A stretch of 64,000 bases of DNA from Centroscyllium fabricii. Taxonomy: Eukaryota. The translations under genes were made by a program, and so were the position numbers. The notes under the pieces were generated by a model. The model was not told the DNA's origin. It searched no databases and saw nothing but the letters and a program-made list of their open reading frames with translations. The DNA lies in contig JBNRSN020000023.1 of the NCBI GenBank assembly GCA_051313645.2, positions 4,154,001-4,218,000 on the forward strand. Direction: 5' to 3'. Shown here piece after piece: positions 277-64,000 of the stretch; position 1 is the stretch's first letter, and each line of letters begins with the position of its first letter.

Positions 277-552
277 TGACATCATAGAATAATCATCCAA
301 ATCTCTGTATTCCAAAGCTCTGATTGGCTCTGGGTATCTTAAACCCCTCCCCCTCTCCTTTGTTAATTGGTGCCTGGATTGATGGAAGATCCTGACTGGC
401 TCTCAGGGATTGTCAATCATCATTGGTCATACCAGACCCTGTTGAAATGCAGGCTGTCCCACTAGTATAAATACAGGAGCTTGTGAGGGCAGAGGTTAGG
501 TTGTTGTTACAGTGGAGTTTGAATTTAGTGCTGATCAACAGGAAGAGTTAAG
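277..552 (+). promoter_or_regulatory. Ferritin g1 promoter and 5'UTR
   Basis: TGACATCA (ATF/AP-1-like) 277-284; inverted CCAAT boxes (ATTGG) 323, 366, 422; TATAAAT 466-472. The block is near-identical upstream of all eight copies. Confidence 0.8.
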
Positions 553-5152
<4,600 letters not shown>

Positions 5153-5783
5153 CTGAATTTACTGCAGACACCCCAACCTGTATATTGAGTGATCTCAGTG
5201 GTTTATGAGGATTTGACTGAGCTCTGTAAAATATGTCTCTGAAGAACTGAGGTCCCATGTTGGTGACATTTATGGTGAAGTACTGTAACAGCAAATAAAA
5301 GCTATTGAGTATTCAACTTGTCCTTGAAGTGATGCTTGTTGGGGGGAGAATGCAATTTGGCTTTATGCCACAAAAATGATTGGAGACAGGACCTAATGAG
5401 TCTGAACACCTGACTGGCTCCAGTCCTCTGTGCCAGCTGAACTTTATTCAGGGCCTTGCTAAGTAGCCAATGGTGTATAATTTCTAAATTATTTTGACCC
5501 ATGTGCTTTAGAAAGATGATTACAGTGAGGCAGTTTGCAATATTTCACAACACTGCTCTGGTCATGGCTGAGGAATGAGTCTTTGTTCCAATCAGTTAGC
5601 TGTTCCAAGATCATATTGCTTTTTCTATTACATTGAGGGAATGGTAAAGCTGTGTACAGAAGGAATATTACTGCTGCACTAATGGTTCAACAATCACACA
5701 CTTGCATAGGAGAATAACTCCTGCAATGAGAGGCTAGGAATCTTAGCGGTCAGGAATATGTCCCTCTCTCAATCAAGGTAGTC

Positions 5784-11112: not shown

Positions 11113-11168
11113 TTTTTAAGCTTCTTTAGAGTCCGCTTGTTCGGGAGAGGGGGAGACTCCGCTCGGTG

Positions 11169-11548
11169 ATGCAGAGGGCCCTGTAGATGGAGTAGAGTGT
11201 CAACCAGAGTCTGCCGGATCTGCACAAACCCTCCGCTGGGAGCGCCGACCCTCATCTGTGTGAATTCCTGGAGACCCGCTATCCAGATGAACGGGCGAAG
11301 ACGACCAGGAAGCTTGGAGAGACTGGGACCTCTGCCTTGTAGGCATGAGGGATTGTGATCGTGACCCCTGCCTTGTAGGCATGAGGGCTTGTGACTTTTG
11401 ACCCCTGCCTTGTAGGCATGAGGGCTTGCAACTTTGCCGGGAGCTATGACTTGAGCACTGTAAATGTTGTTTTGTGTAAAATTGTTGTTTTATATAAAAG
11501 AGTTGAGCTCTGTAATGTTGTTTTGTAATTATTTTAAAATAAAAGAGT
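11169..11548 (+). pseudogene. Processed ferritin pseudogene fragment (spliced exon 3-exon 4, VNTR, 3'UTR)
   Basis: MQRAL*ME*SVNQSLPDLHKPSAGSADPH|LCEFLETRYPDERAKTTRKLG with no intron at 11255/11256; then ~3 VNTR units and AATAAA 11538-11543. Confidence 0.85.
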
Positions 11549-11550
11549 AA

Positions 11551-11825
11551 TGACATCACAGAATAATCATCCAAACCTCTGTATTCCAAAGCTCTGATTG
11601 GCTCTGGGTATCTCAAACCCCTCCCCCTCTCCTTTGTTAATTGGTGCCTGGATTCATGAAGATCCTGACTGGTTATCGGGGATTGTCAATCATCATTGGT
11701 CATACCAGACCCTGTTGAAATGCAGGCTGTCCCACTAGTATAAATACAGGAGCTTGTGAGGGCAGAGGTTAGGTTGTTGTTACAGTGCAGTTTGAATTTA
11801 GTGCTGATCAACAGGAAGAGTTAAG
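11551..11825 (+). promoter_or_regulatory. Ferritin g2 promoter and 5'UTR
   Basis: TGACATCA 11551-11558, three ATTGG boxes, TATAAAT 11739-11745. Confidence 0.8.
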
Positions 11826-14660
<2,835 letters not shown>

Positions 14661-19170: not shown

Positions 19171-19727
19171 TTTTTTTTTTTACTTTCAACTCTTTTATTT
19201 AAAACAACAACTTTACACAAAACAACATTTACAGAGCTCAGGTCACAGCTCCCGGCAAAGTCACAAGCCCTCATGCCTGCAAGGCAGGAGTCAAAGTCAC
19301 AAGCCCTCATGCCTACAAGGCAGGGGTCAAAGTCGCAAGCCCTCATGCCTGCAATGCAGGAGTCAAAGTCACAAGCCCTCATGCCTGCAAGGCAGGAGTC
19401 AAAGTCACAAGCCCTCATGCCTGCAAGGCAGGAGTCAAAGTCACAAGCCCTCATGCCTGCAAGGCAGTGGTCAAAGTCACAAGCCCTCATGCCTGCAAGG
19501 CAGGAGTCAAAGTCACAAGCCCTCATGCCTACAAGGCAGGGGTCAAAGTCGCAAGCCCTCATGCCTGCAAGGCAGGAGTCAAAGTCACAAGCCCTCATGC
19601 CTACAAGGCAGTGGTCAAAGTCACAAGCCCTAATGCCTACAGGGCAGGACTCCCAGTCTTTCCAAGCTTCCTGGTCTTCTTCGCCCGTTCATCTGGACAG
19701 CGGGTCTCCAGGAATTCACACAGATGA
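19171..19727 (-). pseudogene. Processed ferritin pseudogene, inverted copy with poly(A) tail
   Basis: On minus: tcat|ctgtgtgaattcctggag (exon 3/4 junction), degenerate exon 4, VNTR, AATAAA (19199-19194), then A11 (19181-19171). Confidence 0.8.
19256..19649. repeat. 36-bp minisatellite, ~11 units
   Basis: Unit TCACAAGCCCTCATGCCTGCAAGGCAGGAGTCAAAG; ~3 units at 11330-11435 and 2 at 27342-27412. Confidence 0.95.
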
Positions 19728-19759: not shown

Positions 19760-20035
19760 TGACATCATAGAATAATCATCCAAACCTCTGTATTCCAAAG
19801 CTCTGATTGGCTCTGGGTTTCTCAAACCCCTCCCCCTCTCCTCTGTTGATTGGTGCCTGGATTCATGGAAGATCCTGACTGGTTATTGGGGATTGTCAAT
19901 CATCATTGGTCATACCAGACCCTGTTGAAATGTAGGCTGTCCCACTAGTATAAATACAGGAGCTTGTGAGGGTAGAGGTTAGGTTGTTGTTACAGTGGAG
20001 TTTGAATTTAGTGCTTATTAACAGGGAAAGGTAAA
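19760..20035 (+). promoter_or_regulatory. Ferritin g3 promoter and 5'UTR
   Basis: TGACATCA 19760-19767, ATTGG boxes, TATAAAT 19949-19955. Confidence 0.8.
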
Positions 20036-23189
<3,154 letters not shown>

Positions 23190-27264: not shown

Positions 27265-27480
27265 TTTTTACTTTCAACTCTCATTTAAAACAACAACTTT
27301 ACACAAAACAACATTTACAGAGCTCAAGTCACAGCTCCCGGCAAAGTCGCAAGCCCTCATGCCTGCAAGGCAGGGGTCAAAGTCACAAGCCCTCATGCCT
27401 GCAAGGCAGGGGTCCCAGTCACTCCAAGCTTACTGGTCTTCTTCACCTGTTCATCTGGACAGCGGGTCTCCAGGAATTCA
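27265..27480 (-). pseudogene. Third copy of the processed ferritin fragment
   Basis: tgaattcctggagacccgctgtccagatgaacaggtgaagaag on minus; 2 VNTR units; AATAAA mutated. Confidence 0.75.
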
Positions 27481-27989
27481 TAGAAACATATCAACACAAA
27501 CCTACTGGGTATGGAGATATTGCTAAAGATCAGTAAAAAGATTAAGCTTCCACCACAACTTCAATTCACCCAAAACATGGCCAGTGTCAGCCATGGCTTA
27601 CTGGTAGCACTGCCTCTGAACCAGAAGGACCTGGATTGTCCCATTTCAGAGAATGGAGAAAAAATCCAGGTGAACAAGTCATTGAGTGCAGCACGGTCAG
27701 AGGTGTTGTCTTTCAGATGGAAGGGTACACAAGGTCCACTCGGGTGGTGGAGGTTAAAGAACCCATGGTACGATTTCAAAGAGTGGAGTGTCCTGACCTA
27801 TATTTATCCTTAGCCAGCGTAAACAGATTATCTGGTCATCACATGTGTGTGGGTCCTTGCTGTGTGTAAATTGGCTCCCAGATCCATACCTTACAATAAT
27901 TTCTACACTACAAGGGGACTTCATTGGCTGTAAAGCACTTTAGGACAGAGGCCAGAAAGTTACTTTAAACAACATCATTAGAACCTTAC

Positions 27990-30279
27990 ATGAGGGTCAG
28001 TGTTCCCAGTGGAGAGTTTGTGCAGATCCAGCAGACTCTGGTTGACATTCTTTTCCATCTGCAGAGCTCTCTGCATCGCCGCCAGACCATTGCTCCACTC
28101 ATCCCACTCTGGTTTCTGAGTTGGAGAGATAGAAAGAAAGGCATCATCAGCAAAATTAGTCAGTGGATGAAATTAGTTAACAAGATGAATTTGTTCAGCA
28201 GCCAGTAAGATCACAAGTCTTGATGCTCTAATGCAGGGGACTCCTTCCCCAGATTTTAACCAGTCTGTTCATCCCAAGAGACATTTTGGTAAGGAGTTAT
28301 TGGACTTTAGTCACAGCAGTATGAGTTTTTAAGGTGGGCTCTCCTACAAAAGGATAGCATTCCAAAAGGAGGTCTATCTAGCATTAACTGCAGCAACACT
28401 TCCTTGCTTTTATGTTCCATGCCTTAGCATGAAGCCCACCATCCGATTAGCCTTTTGTATCTGCAAGTTAGCTTCTAATGACACCGGTACTTCGACATGC
28501 CCCAAATCCCTTCAGTCCATCCACATCAGAAGGACAGGAGGATCTCATTGAACTACATTTGCCCTCAGAATCCCCCATTTCATTCCATTCTACCCAATCT
28601 TTGCTCTTCCTGTACCCAATCTTTGCTCTTTAGCTCACTGTAGACCCGAGCTCAGCACAACACCATTTCCAATCTAGATCATGTGCACCAGTGGTCACCA
28701 TCCAGGGGTCTATTTTATACCAACTGCTTCCTGCACCACCCAGTTTTACTGGAGTCAGAAGTTTGCTTCTAATTTCATGCATTCCAATTTTAGCCAGCAA
28801 TCCCCTACCTTCTGAAAAGCTATGCATGCAACTATCATTAATTCTCCTCTAGGTACAACTTCCATCACTAGGATTGTTGCAGAACCTACTTTTCACAAAA
28901 CCAAGGCAATTGCTCAAAGTTTGCAGAATCTAACCTGGATGTTGTAGCGTGGTCGCTAACCTAATTAAAAGACGACTCGTAGTTAGTTAATACTAGGCTT
29001 TTAATTAATAAAGAATGGAGGTATCTCCTTGGCAGATTACATACAGGAATGAAAGGGGCTGGGTCAGACCACACCTTTATAGTGCTCCCACCTGGGGGGA
29101 GGAGTCACGGGTGTGGCTGACCTGGCTCCCAGTAACATCTTAGCACACAGGTATACAACAATGGTAACCCATATAAGGGTTACCCATATAAGGGTTACCA
29201 CAGATGTCCTCCAGGACAACATGCCCCCCACGTCGATTCTGGAATTTCATCAGTTTCTCCGCATGCTCCCATTCCTCGTGAGACTGCTCCTTGAAGAACT
29301 CGGTAAAGTGACACAGGGCAACGTCATCCCGGTCAAAGTAATAGGACTGTGGGTAGAGACAAAATGGAGTGGAGAAGGTCAGAGTTTGAACACATCCATG
29401 GCAAATTCAAAAATGGTAGTATCACAGATAAGTTAACTAGTCTCCACCTTATACCTTCCTTTCAAGTCAGGGGTTTACAGTTTAAATGAAAACAAAATGT
29501 TTTTCTTGCAAGTCAAATTCAATTTGGTCTTCAATATGTTGAAAGGCCCTCCTTGTGAAATAACTGACCAAGGCAGTATTGGAAGAGGAGATTGAGCAAT
29601 AATGCTTTTTGTCTTGAAAGTGTCACTTAAGCACTCAACCGGCACTGATCATTTACCGCCTTTTGTTCCCAGAAGTCTAAAAGCGGTGAAGGCAAAGAGC
29701 AAGATCCCAGAAATTCAGTTTAGTTTAAATTGTTTGTTAAGTGTAAGGATTCCAACTCAGGAAGACGCAAATAGAATGCTCAGTACTTCCCTCAATTAGA
29801 AAGGGGACAACAGGCCAGATCCAGCTAACTTTTCACTAATCACCCAATTAAAATTAATCATTTCAATCCAAGTTAGAAACATTGACTAGGTTTGCTTATT
29901 TTCATTATGAATCCTCTATTACAAAACATGAAACCCTGGAGTTAGTTTCAGATATAAACACTTTAGAATAGAACACATCTGTTACAGAGCAGGGAACAGT
30001 TGGTTAATGAGGACTTCTGGAAGATCAGAGTGTTAAGGTTATTCACTGGATTAAGACTGGGGAAGACTATAGAGACACAGAAGCCAATTAACTGACCTGG
30101 AGAAATTCTACCAGCTTAGAATTCAATGACACCACAGCCTTAACTTTGAAACAGGATCCCAAAAATACAAGACTCACCATGGAGAGATAAACATAGGAGG
30201 AATAGAGCTCCATGTTGATCTGCTTGTTGACAGCATCCTCACAGTCCTTGTGGTAGTTCTGACACACTTGGGAGACCAT
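27990..30279 (-). pseudogene. Ferritin copy g4, disrupted
   Basis: Exon 1 30279-30178; exon 2 29346-29203 plus 28942-28935, split by a solo LTR that gives an in-frame stop; exon 3 28115-27990. Intron 3 is truncated at ~27485 and no authentic exon 4 follows. Confidence 0.9.
28943..29202 (-). mobile_element. Solo LTR inserted in g4 exon 2
   Basis: TG..CA ends; 5-bp TSD GATGT (28938-28942 / 29203-29207). Confidence 0.88.
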
Positions 30280-30556
30280 CTTAACTCTTCCTGTTGATCA
30301 GCACTAAGCTCAAACTCCACTGTAGCAACAACCTAACCTCTGCCCTCACAAGCTCCTGTATTTATACTAGTGGGACAGCCTGCATTTCAACAGGGTCTGG
30401 TTTGACCAATGATGATTGACAATCCCTGAGAGCCAGTCAGGAATCTTCCATCAATCCAGGCACCAATTAACAAAGGAGAGGGGGAGGGGTTTGAGACACC
30501 AAGAGCCAATCAGAGCTTTGGAATACAGAGGTTTGGGTGATTATTCTGTGATGTCA
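30280..30556 (-). promoter_or_regulatory. Ferritin g4 promoter and 5'UTR
   Basis: TATAAAT 30366-30360; TGACATCA 30556-30549; CCAAT boxes. Confidence 0.75.
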
Positions 30557-33010
30557 TTGCTGTTGCTTTCTTTGACTTTCCTCAGACTGAATCTGAAAGT
30601 GTCTCTGTTCTCAGAATCAGAGCTTCACAACATATCTCAAAGAGTTCGATGAAATTCCACCCTATAGATGGGGTCGATCACAACCGGCTCTAATTACCCA
30701 TCTCTTGAAGAATTGATGGGCATCTCGGTGGGTCCAGAACGGGTCCGTGATACCAAGGTTCACAATGTTGACCACAATAGATTGAAAGAGACTGACCTGC
30801 ACCAGAGAGTCCACAGTGAATCTGCAAACCAGCCCACAACGAGTTGGGGAAATGGAAAGTGGATCAGTGGGGAGCTTCAGACAGAATCTGTTGCTCCGTC
30901 ACTGTAAAGTGCGATGTGGAGTTTTATCCCCATGAAATTTAAGAGCTGTAAAGTCCTGTGTTTAGTTTGCACTGTTTCCTCATCTCCTGCAAACCCCGGG
31001 TCTGTTGTGAGGAACGGTTTTAGACCTGAAAGGCCAAGTGTCTCGTGTTTTCTCGACCGATGCTGCCTGACCTGCTGAGTGTCTCCAGCGTTTTCTGTTT
31101 CTGTTTGAGATTTCGAGTATCTGCAGTATTTCGGTTTGTGTTCCTATCCTGTTGTAACTCTGGTCCAACTACCAGGCATTTAACAGAAGGACCACAAAAC
31201 CTCCAGAACAGAGAAGAGTGAATTACATAAATCGTACAATATAGAAATAGGATGTTTGGCCCAACTCCCTTCAGCAAATAGCAGTTGATGCTCAGTCAGT
31301 TGTTAATTTTAAATCTGAGATTGATAGATTTTTGTTAACCAAAGCAGTTAGGGGACGCGGCACAAAGGCGGGTACATGGAGTTAGGTCACAGATCAGCCA
31401 TGATCTCATTGAATGGAGGGACAGGCTCGAGGGGCTGAATGGCCTCCTGTTCCGAACCAGCTCATGTTTATTCTCTGCACAAGCACTAGTCCTAATCCCA
31501 CGAGGCTGCCCCGTTGCTATACCATGGCATCTAATCTTGTTTAGGTACATGATTGGAAAGAGGTTCAGTTGTAACTACGGTGGTGTTTGAACGTAGCTCC
31601 TACCAACAGTAAAACTGAAGATTGTCGCCCAAGTATGTCAGAACTACCATGTGTGTGCAAGACACGTGGCCCATCAATCAGCTGTACCATTCCAGAATGT
31701 TTAACGAGCTTTCATTCCCCTTGTGGTGTGGAGAACCAATGTATTTTCCAGTTTAGTTCCCACCAACAGTCCAAACAATATTTTATTTGTACGCAGCCTT
31801 AGCCTTTATAGCAGCTCACCATCGCTGCCAGCTCAGTCCGTGAGGGATTATTTAATGGGCTCGGGTGTCTCAGTATTTTGACTGCACTCATTCCCTTTGG
31901 GTGAACAATTCTTTGAACATTAATCAATGTTTAATTTGGGGCATCATCAGGAACACTCCGAATCACCCCACACTTTGTGGGTTAAGGGCAGCATTTGAAC
32001 AAATTGTGGCCGTCAACAATATACCAAGTGAATTAGTGAAAATAATCTAGTGTTACTATTTGATCAGAATTAACCAGTGGATCCCTACAACAGTGATACA
32101 GCAAGGGAGTTTGGGATGAAGGATCATTTATTTAAACAAATTTATATGCTAACTGTTTTATCTCCACTTTACCCAACACCAACAAACTCCAACTTGGACA
32201 AACTGCAGCTTGATGTAACGTTTTATATAGACTGGTGGTTGATTTAATCCCAGACATCAAGGTTGGCAGTTGGTGGGGGTAGAAAATAGAAAAGGATGTT
32301 GGGGTGTGGGGGTGGGGGGGGCAGTGAGGGGAAAGAGAATGTTATACAGATGTCAGCCTGCCCAAGTGGAAGTTTCCAATATGGCCAACTCTGTACTGTG
32401 TGCACATGTCACAAAGCTTCGGCAATCCAGTGAATGACTCGTGGCATCAGTCAAATGTAAAGACACCTCAATAGCAGGTCATCCCACCACCGTTCCGGAG
32501 AGGTAAACATTTGAAGCAGGACACCAGGCAGATACTCTCCATTTTCCTGACTGAAGAATCAATAGTTAAAGCATCAACTCAACACATTAACTCAACCCCC
32601 TCCACCCTTCCCCATTTCTTTGTTTTAAACCTCCACAGATTAATGACATTTTGCTGGCAGATGTTATAAAAATACCCAGCAGGGATGGTTACCGAGAGTT
32701 CAGAAAACCATTAGAAGCATCTCCAGTGATGGTTTTGAAGATGTGGGCACAGCCATCTTGGACAAAAGGAGGGACTACTGTATTTTTAAACTTTGATCAT
32801 ATATTACACAACTGTGTATTGTGCAGTATAATCTCAATAAGCAGCTCAGCTACTTAATTATACAACAAAGACAAACCACTCAATGATGAATAACTTTTAT
32901 TTCCATGTACTGTGACAGTTAGATGAGAAAACTGGGAAATAATCACAATCAAAGCATTCACCATTAAAAATTGGTCACTTTATTTCCACCATGTATAGAA
33001 CTAATGGTTC

Positions 33011-33048: not shown

Positions 33049-36761
<3,713 letters not shown>

Positions 36762-37038
36762 CTTAACTCTTCCTGTTGATAAGCACAAAGTTCAAACTCC
36801 ACTGTAACAACAACCTAACCTCTACCCTCACAAGCTCCTGTATTTATACTAGTGGGACAGCCTGCATTTCAACAGGGTCTGGTATGACCAAAGATGATTG
36901 ACAATCGCTGAGAGCCAGTCAGGATCTTCCATGAATCCAGGCACCAATTAACAAAGGAGAGGGGGGTGGGGTTTGAGATACCCAGAGCCAATCAGAGCTT
37001 TGGAATACAGAGGTTTGGATGATTATTCTATGATGTCA
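36762..37038 (-). promoter_or_regulatory. Ferritin g5 promoter and 5'UTR
   Basis: TATAAAT 36848-36842; TGACATCA 37038-37031. Confidence 0.8.
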
Positions 37039-40896: not shown

Positions 40897-43798
<2,902 letters not shown>

Positions 43799-44074
43799 CT
43801 TAACTCTTCCGCTTGATCAGCTCTAAGCTCAAACTCCACTGTAACAACAACCTAACCTCTGCCCTCACAAGCCCCTGTATTTATACTAGTGGGACAGCCT
43901 GCATTTCAACAGGGTCTGGTATGACCAATGATGATTGACAATCCCCGCTAACCAGTCAGGAATCTTCATGAATCCAGGCACCAATTAACAAAGGAAAGGG
44001 GGTGGGGTTTGAGATCCCCAGAGCCAATCAGAGCTTTGGAATATAGAGGTTTGGATGATTATTCTCTGATGTCA
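43799..44074 (-). promoter_or_regulatory. Ferritin g6 promoter and 5'UTR
   Basis: TATAAAT 43885-43879; TGACATCA 44074-44067. Confidence 0.8.
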
Positions 44075-48540: not shown

Positions 48541-51495
<2,955 letters not shown>

Positions 51496-51771
51496 CTTAA
51501 CTCTTCCTGTTGATCAGCACTAAGCTCAAACTCCACTGTAACAACAACCTAACCTCTGCCCTCACAAGCTCCTGTATTTATACTGGTGGGACAGCCTGCA
51601 TTTCAACAGGGTCTGGTATGACCAATGATGATTGACAATCCCCGATAACCAGTCAGGATCTTCCATGAATCCAGGCACCAATCAACAAAGGAGAGGGGGA
51701 GGGGTTTGAGAAACCCAGAGCCAATCAGAGCTTTGGAATACAGAGGTTTGGATGATTATTCTGTGATGTCA
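51496..51771 (-). promoter_or_regulatory. Ferritin g7 promoter and 5'UTR
   Basis: TATAAAT 51582-51576; TGACATCA 51771-51764. Confidence 0.8.
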
Positions 51772-53478
51772 TTGCTGTTGCTTTCTTTGACTTTCCTCAG
51801 ACTGAATCTGAAAGTGTCTCTGTTCTCAGAATCAGAGCTTCACAACATATCTCAAAGAGTTTGATGAAATTCCACACTATAGATGGTGTCGATCACAACC
51901 GGCTCTAATTTAACCCATCTCTTGGAGAATTGATGGGCATCTCGGTGGGTCCACAACGGGTCCGTGATACCAAGGTTCACAATGTTGACCACAATAGATT
52001 GAAAGAGACTGACCTGCACCAGACAGTCCGCAGTGAATCTGCAAACCAGCCCACGAGTTGGGGAAATGGAAAGTGGATCAGTGGGGAGCTTCAGACAGAA
52101 TCTGTTGCTCCATCACTGTAAAGTGTGATGTGGAGTTTTATCCCCATGAAATTTAAGAGCTGTAAAGTCCTGTGTTTAGTTTGCACTGTTTCCTCATCTC
52201 CTGCAAACCCCGGGTCTGTTGTGAGGAACGGTTTTAGACCTGAAAGGTCAAGAGTCTCGTGTTTTCTCGACCGACGCTGCCTGACCTGCTGAGTGTCTCC
52301 AGAGTTTTCTGTTTCTGTTTGAGATTTCCAGTATCTGCAGTATTTCGGTTTGTGTTCCTATCCTGTTGTAACTCTGGTCCAATTACCAGGCATTTAACAG
52401 AAGGACCACCAAACCTCCAGAACAGAGAAGAGTGAATTACATAAACCGTCCAACACAGAAATAGGATGTTTGGCCCAACTCTCTTCAGCAAATAGCAGTT
52501 GATGCTCGGTCAGTTGTTAATTTTAAATCTGAGATTGATAGATTTTTGTTAACCAAAGCTGTTAAGGGACGTGGGACAAAGGCGGGTACATGGAGTTAGG
52601 TCACAGATCAGCCATGATCTCATTGAATGGAAGGACAGGCTCGAGGGGCTGAATGGCCTCCTGTTCCGAACCAGCTCATGTTTATTCTCTACACAAGCAC
52701 TAGTCCTAATCCCACGAGGCTGCCCCGTTGCTATACCATGGCATCTAATCTTGTTTAGGTACATGATTGGAAAGAGGTTCAGTTGGAACTACGGTGGTGT
52801 TTGAACGTAGCTCCCACCAACAGTAAAACTGAAGATTGTCGCCCAAGTATGTCAGAACTACCATGTGTGTGTGCAGGACACATGGCCCATCAATCAGCTG
52901 TACCATTCCAGAATGTCCAACGAGCTCTCATTCCCCTTGTGGTGTGGAGAACCAATGTATTTTCCAATTTAGTTCCCACCAACAGTCCAAACAATATTTT
53001 ATTTGTAGGCAATCTTAGCCTTTATAGCAGCTCACCATCGCTGCCAGCTCAGTCCGTGAGGGATTATTTAACAGGCTCGGGTGTCTCAGTATTTTGACTG
53101 CACTCATTCCCTTTGGGTGAACTATTCTTTGAACATTAATCGATGTTTAATTTGGGGCATCATCAGGAACACTCCGAATCACCCCACACTTTGTGGGTTA
53201 AGGGCAGCCATTGAACAAATTGTGGCCGTCAACAATATACCAAGTGAATTAGTGAAAATAATCTAGTGTTACTATTTGATCAGAATTAACCAGTGGATCC
53301 CTACAACAGTGATACAGCAAGGGAGTCTGGGTTTTTGGGATGAAGGATCATTTATTTAAACAAATTTATATGTTTACTGATTTATCTCCACTTTACCCAA
53401 CACCCACAAACTCCAACTTGGACAAACTGCAGCTTGATGTAAAGTTCTATACACACTGGTGGTTCATTTAATCCCAGA

Positions 53479-53648
53479 AGTCACACAACACCAGATTTAT
53501 AGTCCAACGGTTTTATTACAAATCACAAGCTTTCGGAGCGTCGCTCCGAAAGCTTGTGATTTGTAATAAAACCGTTGGACTATAAATCTGGTGTTGTGTG
53601 ACTTCTTGCATTTGTCCACCCCAGTCCAACACCGGCACCTCCACATTA
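53479..53648. mobile_element. Penelope-like fold-back insertion
   Basis: Perfect 65-bp inverted repeat 53476-53540 / 53542-53606; 14-bp TSD catttaatcccaga; empty site at ~32240. Confidence 0.8.
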
Positions 53649-54436: not shown

Positions 54437-57716
<3,280 letters not shown>

Positions 57717-57996
57717 CTTAACTCTTCCTGTTGCTCAGCACTAAATTCAAACTCCACTGTAACAACAACAACCTAACCTCTGTCCTCACAAGCTCCTGTA
57801 TTTATACTAGTGGGACAGCCTGCATTTCAACAGGGTCTGGTATCATCAATGATGATTGACAATCCCTGGGAGCCAGTCAGGATCTTCCATGAATCCAGGC
57901 ACCAATTAACAAAGGAGAGGGGGGTGGGGTTTGAGATACCCAGAGCCAATCAGAGCTTTGGAATACAGAGGTTTGGATGATGATTTTATGATGTCA
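57717..57996 (-). promoter_or_regulatory. Ferritin g8 promoter and 5'UTR
   Basis: TATAAAT 57806-57800; TGACATCA 57996-57989. Confidence 0.8.
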
Positions 57997-59012: not shown

Positions 59013-61160
59013 ATGGCGACACCATCTTCGCCGGTGGCGGGGACATCGGGAACGTATGCGGCCGTGGCATCCGCTGCCAAGACCACGGCTGCCCCTGATG
59101 CCCCGTCACCATTCCGGCTGCTGACAAGGAAGCTGGGGGTGAGGAGCTACGCTCACCCATCTATGACAATAGAGGCATGCGTCAAGGCCATGGCTGGGGT
59201 GGTCGGCCCCTCAGCCATCGTCGCGGCCTCTAAAATGTACGGGAAGGCTGTGTTCTTCCTCAAATCCGAGCGGGCGGCGGCCCTGGCCATTGAACAAGGG
59301 CTCACCGTGGGCGGCACCTTCCTGACGGTGGACCCTCTTGAGGCCGCCGGGCAGAGGGTGGTCCTATCGAACATCCCGCCCTATATTCCCGGTGAGCTCC
59401 TCCTCCCCCACCTACGCAAACTTGGGGAGGTGAGGTCAGGGATATCGCCCATCCCGCTCGGGTTCCGGGAGGCCAGCCTTCGCCACGTCTTCTCCTTCCG
59501 GCGTCAGCTGTTCATGCAGCTGGCGCGGGAGGAGGACACTGATGGCGCGTTCCTCGTGCTGCACCAGGGGACCGCCTACCGCGTCTTCTGGACGACGGAC
59601 GGCGTGCGGTGCCATTTCTGTAAGGAGGTGGGGCATATCAGAAAGAACTGCCCCGCCTCCAAGGCCGCCAATAATAGTGCGGCCAAAAAGGGCACCGGCG
59701 CCGCTCCTCCCCCAGAGTCAGACCGCGCGTCTCGGAAGTCGGGCGCGCGGGAGTTGTCGGAGGCCAATGTCATCACGGCCTCCGGCGGGGGGGAGCAAAC
59801 GTGTCCGCACACAAAGAGGGCGCGGAATAAATCAAAACAAAGGAGGGAGGGTCCCCTGGTTGGGGATGCCCAACTGTCAGACCTGCCAGATATAACACCC
59901 GAGTACCTCGAAAATGTGCAGGTTCAAGATGGGAGCAAGGAGGGCCCCGAGTCTGAGCCTGCGGCCGCCACTGCTATGGCAGAAAATTTAACACCTGCGG
60001 CAGGGCTCGGAAAAGAGGGGCCCGAAATAACTATTCAGCTGGGGGGAACGGAGGAGGGGGTGGCCTTAGGAGAGATGGAGGTCGCCCCCCCTCAGGGCCC
60101 CCTCAGCGGAAAAAGGAAGCACGACTTCGACTCCCAGGATCAGCAGGGGGGCCGTGATCATGAGGGCGGTCCCCCCGAGGGAGCGGAGTCGTCGTGCTCC
60201 GCGCCCCCTCCCAAAATCATTATATTCGCTAAAGACGGGCAGGAGTCGCCTGTCTTGCGGGAGAGTGGGGCGGAGGAGATTGTCCTGCCCGTGTCTCCCG
60301 GGGATGGGGATCTGGCCCTGCCCGTGGGAGGGGACGCGGATCAACCTCAAAAACATCTGGACCCTCAAGGGGAAAAAATTTGCCTCGGTGGGCCGAGCGT
60401 ACTGGAGGCGGAGGAGGGCGAGGTCGAAGGGATAGACCTCGCCCAAGACAGCACCGCGATGATCCAGTATATGCTCGGCTTCATGGAGGATTTTAACCAG
60501 GGTAACCTACAGGCTGGGTCAGTGGTTGGTGGCGGGGAAGGTGACGGCTCACTCACCCCTCCCTCGACATTGGCGTCGGACGCACTGGAGAGCTTGACAT
60601 TTGAATATGCCCCCGTCTCTCCGTGCTCTCCGGCGCCTGAGGAGGAGGGGAGCCCCGAACTGCTGCCTTCCTCTGGCCTGGCACCCCGGGTGGAGCCCAG
60701 GGAGGACTCCTCTGCCATCGATCCTGGGGGTGGGATCGAGACAGAGGCAGGGTCGGACGGTGCGGCCGGGCCGTCAGTCGCGTTCTGCGCGGCTGATGGA
60801 GTGGACGCCGGTGGTAACCTTCCGGAGGGGGACGGGGACTCGGAGCTGGACGAGGAGCTGGAGTCCATCGCCGATGAGGCGGCGGACGACCCCGAGCCCT
60901 CCGCTGAGTCTCCTCTCGTCCCCGTGGCGGAGCTCCGGAAATTTGTGGCCACGTACCCGGTTCGCAAAAAAATGGTCCATAAGGCCATCGAAAAGTGGCC
61001 GGAGCTGGCGCCGCTCATTTCGTCCGTCCGCGTCGCCATTAAAACCTTGGCCGCGGACAAGGGCGACAATGACATCGAGCTGCGCCAGCTCCAAAAGTTC
61101 CTCACTGGGCTGCAGAGGAAGGGGCGTGAGTCCACGGACTGCGCTCTTTCCTCTCGATAG
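59013..61160 (+). CDS. Tx1 ORF1 (gag-like nucleic-acid-binding protein), 715 aa from first ATG
   Basis: YAAVA motif, AASKMYGKAVFFL, RVVLSNIPPYI, zinc knuckle CHFCKEVGHIRKNC, long acidic low-complexity tail. Confidence 0.9.
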   Translation: MATPSSPVAGTSGTYAAVASAAKTTAAPDAPSPFRLLTRKLGVRSYAHPSMTIEACVKAMAGVVGPSAIVAASKMYGKAVFFLKSERAAALAIEQGLTVGGTFLTVDPLEAAGQRVVLSNIPPYIPGELLLPHLRKLGEVRSGISPIPLGFREASLRHVFSFRRQLFMQLAREEDTDGAFLVLHQGTAYRVFWTTDGVRCHFCKEVGHIRKNCPASKAANNSAAKKGTGAAPPPESDRASRKSGARELSEANVITASGGGEQTCPHTKRARNKSKQRREGPLVGDAQLSDLPDITPEYLENVQVQDGSKEGPESEPAAATAMAENLTPAAGLGKEGPEITIQLGGTEEGVALGEMEVAPPQGPLSGKRKHDFDSQDQQGGRDHEGGPPEGAESSCSAPPPKIIIFAKDGQESPVLRESGAEEIVLPVSPGDGDLALPVGGDADQPQKHLDPQGEKICLGGPSVLEAEEGEVEGIDLAQDSTAMIQYMLGFMEDFNQGNLQAGSVVGGGEGDGSLTPPSTLASDALESLTFEYAPVSPCSPAPEEEGSPELLPSSGLAPRVEPREDSSAIDPGGGIETEAGSDGAAGPSVAFCAADGVDAGGNLPEGDGDSELDEELESIADEAADDPEPSAESPLVPVAELRKFVATYPVRKKMVHKAIEKWPELAPLISSVRVAIKTLAADKGDNDIELRQLQKFLTGLQRKGRESTDCALSSR

Positions 61161-61186
61161 GAAAAAATTAGTATAGTGCTGCTGGC

Positions 61187-64000
61187 ATGAAGATAACCAT
61201 AGCTAGCCTCAACATCAACGGCAGCAGGGAGGCACGCCGTAGATTTAACAATTTCTCGGTCCTCCGGGACGGGAAGTATGCGGTGTGCTTCCTGCAAGAA
61301 ACCCACACCGTTCCGGGAGACGAGGCCACGTGGCTCCTGGAGTGGCAAGGAGGGGTCAGCATGAGTCACCTCTCCAATTTGTCCAGCGGGGTGGCTATCT
61401 TGCTGGCCCCACATTTTCAGCCGGAGATCTTGAGGGTCAAGGAGCACGTGCCGGGCCGCTTGCTCCAGGTCACTGTTCGTCACGGGGGCGTGCCGCTCCA
61501 TCTTGTGAACATGTACGCCCCTAAGTTCGGTGCGCAGCAAGTTGGCTTCTTTGAAGAAGTGTCCGCTCTTCTGAGCTCTATCGATGGCGGAGAGTGCATC
61601 ATCCTCGGGGGGGATTTCAATTGTACCCTCGAGGCAAGGGACCATTCGGGTCGCCCGGACAGCTCGGCATCGACAGAGAAGTTGAGGGACCTGGTCGGGT
61701 CCTTCGACTTGGTGGACGTCTGGCGAAATCTCCATCCCGACTCGAGCGCCTTCACCTATGTGAGGTCTGGAGGAGGAGGCTCCCGAATCGACCGCCTCTA
61801 CATTTCTCGGGCGTACGTCTCCTGTGTTCGGGCGGCTTCCATGCGGCCGGTGCCGTGCACGGACCACCACCTGGTGTGGACAGAGCTCACTCTGTTGCGC
61901 GCGCGGGGGGGGTCCGCGTACTGGCATTTTAACAACCTGCTGCTGGAGGACGCGCGATTCCGGGATTCGTTCCGTCGGTTCTGGGCCGACTGGAGAAGGA
62001 AGCAGGGGGGCTTCCCCTCCTTGAGGCTATGGTGGGACGTGGGCAAGGCTCACGTCCGTCTCTTCTGTCAGGAGTACGCGAGGGGGTCGACCAAGGGGCG
62101 GAAAGCTCAGGTCGAGCGATTAGAGAAGGAAGTGCTCGACCTAGAGTCCGGCCTTGGTCAGGTCGTCGGGGACCCGGCCCTGCGGACAGTGTACGAAGAA
62201 AAGAAGGCCGCGCTGAAGGACCTGCAGTTCGTCGGGTCCCGAGGCGCGTTCGTGAGGTCGCGTATCCAGTTCCTGCGGGATCTGGACCGCGGCTCCCCCT
62301 TCTTCTACTCGCTGGAAAAAAGGCGAGGGGTCCGTAAGCAGCTCTTGATGCTGCTGGCCGACGACGGATCTCTGGTCTCGGATCCGGAGGGGATCAGCGC
62401 GGAGACCCGGTCCTTTTACGGGTCTCTGTTCTCTCCGGATCCGTCCAGCGAGGATGCGCGTAGAGTTTTGTGGGAGGACCTGCCAAGGGTCAGTCCGGAG
62501 GGCGCCGAACAATTGGACGCTCCGCTAAGTCAGGCGGAGCTGACCGGCGCCCTCGGCAAGCTCTCGAGGGGAAAGTCCCCGGGGCTGGACGGGCTGACCG
62601 TGGAGTTCCACAGGGCGTTCTGGGACGTCCTGGGGGGCGATTACCAGCGGGTCCTGGGGGAAAGTATGGCGACCGGGGAGATGCCCCTCTCGTGGCGCAG
62701 GGCCATCATTGTCCTGCTGCCAAAGAGGGGTGATCTCCGCCTCCTTAAAAACTGGCGCCCGGTCTCCCTCCTCAGCACGGATTATAAAATTTTTGCCAGG
62801 GCCATGTCTGCCCGCCTTGGCACCGTGCTGGCCCACATGATCCATCCCGACCAGTCCTACACGGTCCCGGGCCGGTCAATCCACGACAACGTCCATCTGG
62901 TCCGGGACCTGCTCCACCATTCCCAGAGGGCTGGCATGTCGGTCGCCTTCCTTTCCCTGGATCAGGAGAAGGCGTTCGACAGGGTGGATCACGAGTACCT
63001 TTTCGGGACTCTGCGCGCATTCGGGTTCGGGACGCATTTTGTCGCCCGGATCCGACTTTTGTACGCTGCCGCAGAGTGTCTGATTAAAGTTAACGGGTCT
63101 TTGACGGCGCCCCTTCGCTTTGGGAGGGGGGTACGTCAGGGATGCCCCATGTCCGGTCAGTTATATGCCATTTGCGTGGAGCCTTTCCTGCGCCTCTTGC
63201 GGAAGAGGTTGACGGGACTGGCTCTGCAAGGGCCGGGCGTGGAGGTTGTCCTCTCGGCTTACGCCGATGACGTGCTCCTCATGGTCACGGACCCCGCTGA
63301 CCTGCGGAGGATGCGAGAATGCCAGCAGATTTACTCGGACGCATCCTCCGCCAGGATCAACTGGGAGAAATGTTCCGGACTCCTGGTGGGGCAGTGGCAG
63401 GTGGACTCCCTGCCGGAGGAGTTCAGGCCTTTCGCCTGGAGCACCACGCACCTCCTCTACTTGGGAGTCCACCTCAGCCCAGCCGAGGAAGCCTGGCCGG
63501 CGAACTGGCAAGAGCTGGAGGCCAAAGTCACCGTTCGCCTAGGGCGCTGGACAGGACTGCTCCGAGTGTTGTCCTACAGGGGTCGAGCGCTAGTCATAAA
63601 CCAGCTGGTGGCCGCCATGTTGTGGTACCGGTTGGTCACTTTGATCCCCCCCCCTGGTTTTGTCGCCAGGATACAGAAGAAGCTCATCGACTTCTTCTGG
63701 GACAAAAGGAAGCACTGGGTCTCTGCCGCGGTTCTGTGTCTCCCGCTTAGGGAGGGCGGTCAGGCGCTGGTGTGCCTCCGCACCCAGGCGGCGACTTTCC
63801 GTCTACAGACGCTGCAGAGATACCTGTACGTTGAGGATCCTCCTAGATGGTGTGCGATGGCGACGTATTTCTTCCGCCAGTTGCACGGCCTCAACTATGA
63901 CACGCAGCTCCTGTTTGTGAGAGCGGGCATTACACGTGCCAGCTTTCGGGAGCTGCCTGTCTTTTACCAGGAACTGCTATGGGTTTGGAACAGCGTCGCC
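61187..64000 (+). CDS. Tx1 ORF2 (APE endonuclease + reverse transcriptase), 3' partial
   Basis: MKITIASLNING, FLQETH, NMYAP, GGDFN, SRIDR, TDHH (APE); KSPGLDG, NWRPVSLL, DQEKAFD, GVRQGCP, AYADD (RT). Absent from the ORF track, consistent with no stop in the window. Confidence 0.92.
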   Translation, partial: MKITIASLNINGSREARRRFNNFSVLRDGKYAVCFLQETHTVPGDEATWLLEWQGGVSMSHLSNLSSGVAILLAPHFQPEILRVKEHVPGRLLQVTVRHGGVPLHLVNMYAPKFGAQQVGFFEEVSALLSSIDGGECIILGGDFNCTLEARDHSGRPDSSASTEKLRDLVGSFDLVDVWRNLHPDSSAFTYVRSGGGGSRIDRLYISRAYVSCVRAASMRPVPCTDHHLVWTELTLLRARGGSAYWHFNNLLLEDARFRDSFRRFWADWRRKQGGFPSLRLWWDVGKAHVRLFCQEYARGSTKGRKAQVERLEKEVLDLESGLGQVVGDPALRTVYEEKKAALKDLQFVGSRGAFVRSRIQFLRDLDRGSPFFYSLEKRRGVRKQLLMLLADDGSLVSDPEGISAETRSFYGSLFSPDPSSEDARRVLWEDLPRVSPEGAEQLDAPLSQAELTGALGKLSRGKSPGLDGLTVEFHRAFWDVLGGDYQRVLGESMATGEMPLSWRRAIIVLLPKRGDLRLLKNWRPVSLLSTDYKIFARAMSARLGTVLAHMIHPDQSYTVPGRSIHDNVHLVRDLLHHSQRAGMSVAFLSLDQEKAFDRVDHEYLFGTLRAFGFGTHFVARIRLLYAAAECLIKVNGSLTAPLRFGRGVRQGCPMSGQLYAICVEPFLRLLRKRLTGLALQGPGVEVVLSAYADDVLLMVTDPADLRRMRECQQIYSDASSARINWEKCSGLLVGQWQVDSLPEEFRPFAWSTTHLLYLGVHLSPAEEAWPANWQELEAKVTVRLGRWTGLLRVLSYRGRALVINQLVAAMLWYRLVTLIPPPGFVARIQKKLIDFFWDKRKHWVSAAVLCLPLREGGQALVCLRTQAATFRLQTLQRYLYVEDPPRWCAMATYFFRQLHGLNYDTQLLFVRAGITRASFRELPVFYQELLWVWNSVA

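Follow-up and report, generated by a model that had tools for sequence, protein, structure and literature searches.

The eight ferritin genes found in the window, by which we mean the whole stretch of 64,000 nucleotides of Centroscyllium fabricii DNA analysed here, carry in their 5' leaders a segment resembling the iron-responsive element (IRE) of ferritin mRNAs. This segment is very probably not a working IRE, as it fails every computational test for which the controls worked. On balance, we favour the reading that the segment is the decayed remnant of an IRE that disappeared at an early stage of the shark ferritin array, and that the mRNAs would escape IRP1/2, leaving transcription and gene number to determine their output, likely in the ovary.

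Three of the four-exon genes are on the forward strand (ATGs at 553, 11826 and 20036) and five on the reverse strand (ATGs at 30279, 36761, 43798, 51495 and 57716):
553–5152, + strand: ferritin gene g1, intact, with exons 553–654, 3502–3648, 4291–4416 and 5000–5152
11826–14660, + strand: ferritin gene g2, four exons, intact; its exon 1–exon 2 joint is found in contigs of the runs X1 and X2 from related organisms
20036–23189, + strand: ferritin gene g3, intact; the donor of intron 3 is GC
27274–30279, - strand: g4, likely a pseudogene; exons 1–3 are open and exon 4 is degenerate (no AG acceptor, stops, short repeats)
33049–36761, - strand: ferritin gene g5, intact
40897–43798, - strand: ferritin gene g6, intact
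48541–51495, - strand: ferritin gene g7, intact
54437–57716, - strand: ferritin gene g8, intact
Because the coding sequences of the seven intact copies are 94.6–97.3% identical, the eight copies do not amount to eight independent observations.

The segment under study lies at the following positions:
499–525, + strand: putatively decayed IRE-like segment of g1 (n0–n26, ungapped register), with CAGTG at 510–514, the loop of the shifted register (TGGAGT) at 513–518 and TTGAA at 519–523
11772–11798, + strand: IRE-like segment of g2
19982–20008, + strand: IRE-like segment of g3
30307–30333, - strand: IRE-like segment of g4, where, alone among the copies, n8 of the shifted register is C
36789–36815, - strand: IRE-like segment of g5
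43826–43852, - strand: IRE-like segment of g6
51523–51549, - strand: IRE-like segment of g7
57744–57770, - strand: IRE-like segment of g8
In g1, positions 501–523 read TTGTTGTTA-CAGTG-GAG-TTTGAA, as described in the original prediction, which had seen in it an eroded IRE with a recognisable loop and 3' arm, retained nearly unchanged in every copy. The near identity is confirmed, CAGTG lying 43 nt before the ATG (-43) in 8/8 copies. The 3' arm is TTTGAA in five copies and TTTGAG in three, g2 has CAG for GAG, g4 has TGCTA for TGTTA, and g8 carries one extra TTG. The single contig that covers the site in each of the runs X3 and X4 shows the TTTGAG-C form; in the runs X1 and X2, none of the contigs covers 11753–11822 at 80% likeness, which was not taken as evidence. 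It also holds that the 5' arm TGTTA cannot pair with AGTTT, with 0 Watson-Crick and 2 G.U pairs out of 5, and at most 3/5 after skipping 1–5 bases.

The likeness to an IRE was scored against the Rfam consensus, and not against an IRE-bearing ferritin of the source shark itself. With CAGTG as the loop, the ungapped alignment gives 12–14 consensus identities out of 36, compared with 18–20 (P 0.002–0.065) in a register shifted by 3 (at -56), which has G7, T in place of C8, a stem TACAG/TTGAA with 4/5 bases paired, and the loop TGGAGT. Since the best ungapped register puts the loop on TGGAGT, CAGTG may not be the old loop. The 3' arm is recognisable (TTGAA or TTGAG is kept). The role of CAGTG as the old loop is unproven; it could still have been the loop, at the cost of a 3-nt insertion and a 3-nt loss. 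Two routes of decay can thus be envisaged. Either substitutions in place would have turned the old loop into TGGAGT while leaving the upper stem at 4/5, or, as in the original picture, GTG would have been duplicated behind CAGTG and three nucleotides lost from the 5' arm.

For the tests of function, the SIREs stem rule (PMC2896125) was coded together with the 22 SIREs 3.0 motifs (PMC12230718), and the leaders were scanned from -290 to +25. The controls were 43 ferritin mRNAs (L001–L043) out of 61 loci from a metagenome scan, L044–L061 being left out as many are genomic or partial. No shark ferritin leader is present among the 61 loci, the best of which reaches 82% identity over one exon. None of the eight leaders passes any of the 22 motifs, while 24 of the 43 controls do. 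The Rfam model RF00037 (IRE_I) has no match at E ≤ 10 in positions 1–1000 (g1) and is present in 3/4 controls at 22–26 bits; at the same threshold it does not match the exon-1 relic described below. Scans at the Rfam gathering threshold gave 0 matches in the window, but also 0 in 20 control loci, and carry no weight because their own controls failed. A covariance model (R1) was built from 21 control IREs; at E ≤ 10, none of the eight sites is among its 15 window matches, and 21 of 35 held-out loci score at least 17 bits (17–43 bits). One of the other loci (L052:7–37) has a hairpin resembling an IRE, in which position 8 is G; it scores 24.8 bits with this model. The SIREs and Rfam checks originally proposed, together with the covariance model, thus bear out the claim that there is no functional IRE.

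Inspection of the individual positions gives the same picture. PMC8466369 sets out five IRE features, among them the C14–G18 cross-loop pair and A15, and of the features given there no copy combines C8 with both the AGU triplet and the five-pair stem. The C14–G18 pair is found in 8/8 copies in the CAGTG register, which is stemless, and is absent (T14) in the only register with a stem. The A15-G16-U17 triplet is likewise confined to the stemless register, the stem-forming one showing GGA or GCA. Position 19, which in a functional IRE is U or C rather than G, is G in 7/8 copies and C in g2 in the CAGTG register, and T in 8/8 in the shifted one. A bulged C8 is absent in the CAGTG register (T in 8/8) and, except for g4, in the shifted register (T in 7/8). 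Under the valid loop CAGTGN, the place of the five-pair upper stem is taken by the two G.U pairs mentioned above, with no Watson-Crick pair. In comparison with the ferritin 5' IRE (RF00037 IRE_I; SIREs motifs 1–22), the segment is alike in its predicted cap-proximal position in a ferritin leader, in half or slightly more of the ungapped consensus bases (18–20/36), and in keeping G7, C11, G22 and TTGAA/TTGAG. It is unlike it in the missing C8, in never combining the loop with a five-pair stem, and in its shorter leader, the loop being 40–43 nt from the ATG versus 87–219 nt in 24 controls. These observations also bear on whether the segment could be a weak, non-canonical IRP site that leaves some iron control, which we consider highly improbable. 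As far as sequence is concerned, U8 with CAGUGN does fit SIREs motif 20 in 8/8 copies, and the shifted register satisfies the stem rule (one mismatch, at most two G.U) in 8/8, with C8 in g4. However, the motif-20 stem has at least 3 defects, and the loop TGGAGT or TGCAGT is in none of the 22 motifs and is without C14–G18 and A15, features named in PMC8466369. In addition, the pairing probability of the shifted hairpin is below 0.01 in 6/8 copies, g4 and g6 forming the top 3 pairs only.

If the segment is not a working IRE, it may either be a remnant of one or resemble one by chance. In the latter case an unrelated T/G-rich leader would have been conserved together with the core promoter, and a chance likeness copied eight times, a reading to which we give roughly one chance in four. 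Single copies match the Rfam consensus weakly, with P 0.002–0.5 depending on statistic and copy (dinucleotide P up to 0.36 and 0.52), several values being above 0.05, and the register and statistics were picked after inspection of the data from among six statistics tried. Furthermore, CAGWG alone is present in 17% of random 62-mers from the window, and CAGTG is followed by TTGA within 5 nt at 4 other places in it. Observations in the opposite direction come from an older relic of exon 1, which the original prediction had overlooked:
31559–31649, + strand: older exon-1 relic, in which the start codon reads ATT and 44/62 leader bases are identical to g1
52773–52863, + strand: second copy of the relic, belonging to the same duplicated segment as that at 31559 and not independent; its 11-mer lies at 52797
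The regions upstream of g4 and g7 (30279–32300 and 51495–53500) share this duplicated segment, which includes the relic in head-to-head orientation. At 31583–31593 the relic reads GTGTTTGAACG, 11 bases that agree exactly with the 3' half of the IRE_I consensus of Rfam, a match found in 0 of 8000 genomic 62-mers and with a dinucleotide-shuffle P of 0.001–0.002. Within n0–n26, one of the two bears the consensus base at 8/8 sites where the relic and the majority of the copies differ, and the diverged relic moves to the consensus at 4/4 core sites departing from a non-consensus majority base, compared with 0/4 informative sites outside n0–n26. A joint column-shuffle of relic and majority gives P 0.0005–0.003, the reversed or complemented consensus reaching 18 versus 23; as these joint tests were chosen post hoc, after inspection of the data, we read them as good, not decisive. 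The eroded-IRE origin that had been proposed thus gains support from the relic copy, although the single copies are weak and the leaders of other sharks, considered below, are not significant, and we regard descent of the segment from an IRE as probable.

The position of the segment within the transcript was predicted from the promoter:
274–498, + strand: promoter block of g1, common to all 8 copies, with TGACATCA at 277, an inverted CCAAT-like box at 320 and TATAAATA at 466
We take TGACATCA to be CRE/ATF-like and the inverted box to be CCAAT-like, with putative functions. A STAT-like TTCCCTGAA near 232–240 was rejected, as it is found in g1 only and outside the common block. The block from about -280 to the ATG is common to all copies and the alignment is lost upstream of it; the homology starts abruptly at TGACATCA, about -276 (274–284 and equivalents), beyond which most copies are unrelated. 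A contig from another organism (run X2) matches the promoter at 11579–11752 with 23 differences and 6 gaps. Given the TATA box at -87 (-90 in g8), transcription would start about 57–62 nt before the ATG, and the IRE-like segment would be at the cap end of a leader of that length. This is the place of 5' IREs in many control mRNAs, which speaks against a chance likeness. It could be argued that the true mRNAs start further upstream and carry a canonical IRE in another exon, considering that the leader start rests on the TATA box and that a chiton ferritin has IRE-plus and IRE-minus isoforms from alternative starts (bioRxiv 10.1101/2020.05.19.102897). We find this highly improbable: the homology among copies ends sharply at about -280, peptides read through the leader in three other sharks preserve the TATA box together with its flanks, and the whole window has only 3 passes of motif 1 or 2, each mismatched and none common to the copies.

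The leaders of other sharks were read from database proteins that had been mis-called through promoter and leader, so that these form their N-termini. Peptides from Heptranchias (P0166), Cetorhinus (P0065/P0097) and Heterodontus (P0014) are homologous to the leader, each beating all 60 shuffles, with P values that hold for the first parameter set only. They also contain the TATA region where they are long enough. Five of the nine shark peptides (Heptranchias P0164, Stegostoma P0196, Pristis P0202, Pristiophorus P0018 and Cetorhinus P0099) gave no significant leader alignment and were not used. The Heptranchias peptide can encode CAGTG and TTGAA at the matching places, while those of Cetorhinus and Heterodontus can encode neither there. 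IRE likeness is not significant in any of the three (P 0.17–0.24 for Heptranchias, 0.53–0.98 for Cetorhinus and 0.71–0.89 for Heterodontus), and 3/3 mammalian controls beat all 150 shuffles. The test is noisy: with one of the three parameter sets, even the non-aligning P0018 and P0099 came out at P < 0.05 when compared with the IRE consensus. A short leader without an IRE therefore appears to be common to squalomorph and galeomorph array genes; that the galeomorph leaders are homologous but not IRE-like also fits a chance likeness. Judging from these peptides, the CAGTG motif itself is not conserved across shark array leaders.

This bears on the claim that the element has been retained. CAGTG is indeed present in 8/8 copies, but the diversity among the copies at the site (0.055) is close to that of the promoter (0.058), the values for the coding part of exon 1 and for the remaining leader being 0.031 and 0.109, which would be expected also if the likeness were due to chance. 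As conservation of the site does not exceed that of the promoter, and as CAGTG cannot be accommodated at this place in the leaders of horn shark and basking shark, the term overstates the case where selection is meant. Apart from one short match, the introns are 70–88% identical, and the TATA promoter is far more uniform. Promoter and exon 1 are kept uniform as a block, via selection or gene conversion, and the IRE-like bases are not singled out. The remnant is accordingly predicted to ride along in this homogenised block, rather than being kept for its own sake.

The nearest proteins of the window copies are shark array ferritins (164/173 residues are identical between g2 and Pristiophorus P0013). 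In a tree of 43 rows, from which g4 was left out, the copies fall within a chondrichthyan clade of 24 rows (99/97) that includes Callorhinchus P0072, their position inside it being without strong support, and elasmobranch fth1a forms a separate clade (100/99). Frog M chains are the best PDB matches of exon 2, and the window ferritins have Glu at position 57 like frog M, where rabbit H has His. The likeness to amphibian and fish M chains consists of these two observations; the rows of the tree include no named teleost or frog M sequence. Comparable copies are numerous in RefSeq/UniRef for sawshark, sevengill, horn, bamboo, zebra, whale, cat, white and basking sharks. Three proteins filed as Salmonella or Escherichia (P0151, P0349 and P0203, on contigs of 308–777 bases) fall among the ferritins of sharks or other vertebrates, and are likely host contamination of bacterial records. 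Two turtle ferritin models (P0006 and P0008) consist of two partial domains fused, which suggests that tandem ferritin copies also occur in turtles.

Sahm et al. (bioRxiv 10.1101/2024.09.09.611499) report 155 and 179 ferritin copies, in clusters that are conserved between Greenland and white sharks and, in the Greenland shark, expressed specifically in the ovary. Like the window genes, these are tandem, near-identical, mostly full-length and common across sharks; the genes are named FTL/FTH1 there, whereas our tree sets the array apart from fth1a. The window genes are likely part of this already described ovary-expressed array. The passage on the cluster does not discuss 5'UTRs, and the word 'iron' is absent from the main text; in the literature consulted the regulation of these copies is not addressed. 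Messages without an IRE are known from other ferritins: bioRxiv 10.1101/2020.05.19.102897 proposes constitutive translation for the IRE-less chiton isoform 2, and PMC1488847 points to IRE-less messages in Schistosoma, whose ferritins include a yolk form. Those are an isoform or single genes of invertebrates, while the window holds an array of several vertebrate genes in which a remnant is likely still readable. The array and its ovary expression are published and, IRE-less ferritin messages as such being known, the surprise is moderate; the literature searched, mostly outside subscription journals, contained no study of whether the shark ferritin array has an IRE and no report of its loss there.

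With no working IRE, the mRNAs would be translated regardless of cell iron: IRP1/2 would be unable to block initiation, and ferritin output would follow transcription and copy number. The suggestion of oocyte expression in the original prediction agrees with the ovary-specific expression published for the cluster of the Greenland shark, and these particular copies may be expressed in the ovary as well. Considering that ferritin mRNA is also plentiful in fish ovaries and eggs, as stated in PMC1488847, egg provisioning would be the likeliest use of the array; the stress or immune control that the original prediction also suggested finds no support in this analysis. A more far-reaching version of the decayed-remnant reading, which we put forward only tentatively and think somewhat doubtful, is that a single IRE knock-out in the gene that founded the chondrichthyan array ended IRP control and enabled more than 100 egg-loading copies; the fossil IRE, readable even now, over 250 million years later, would then date the loss. 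If the whole array is without a working IRE, its protein output would be uncoupled from cell iron, and the array would be a developmental, egg-provisioning system rather than an enlarged buffer against iron stress. This matters for attempts to link ferritin copy number to shark longevity. It would also offer a clear-cut example, open to testing, of a cis-regulatory RNA that a vertebrate lost either ahead of gene amplification or in its course.

As for the genes themselves, the 7 intact copies have open frames of 173–175 codons and a pN/pS of 0.19, indicating purifying selection. The ferroxidase residues E27, Y34, E61/E62, H65, E107 and Q141, placed against rabbit P0259 and given in human H numbering, are present in 7/7. 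In contigs of the runs X1 and X2, from other organisms and guessed to be RNA, exon 1 continues directly into exon 2 across the modelled GT..AG intron. Near the ferroxidase site, the Arg of HEEREH is replaced by Trp in g1 and g4, and a His by Arg in g7; g8 has Asp for Tyr two residues past E27. Intron 3 of g3 opens with GC instead of GT (22025–22030). The g1 protein ends in TLGEE and its gene has its own 3'UTR (5143–5330), versus SLS in the six other intact copies, and its 2.8-kb intron 1 contains a reverse-transcriptase-like fragment at 2754–3092. A decayed ferritin fragment at 11130–11500 (+) has exon 3 fused straight to exon 4, giving it a processed look, and is joined to short tandem repeats. 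Partial copies of it lie at 19186–19727 (-) and 27274–27480 (-), and the same decayed unit of exon 4 and repeats occupies the expected place of exon 4 in g4, which is likely a pseudogene that has lost a usable exon 4. At the end of the array, 59013–64000 contains a GC-rich 715-aa ORF and downstream frames that together resemble a LINE retroelement, which we take to be of the L1/Tx1 type.
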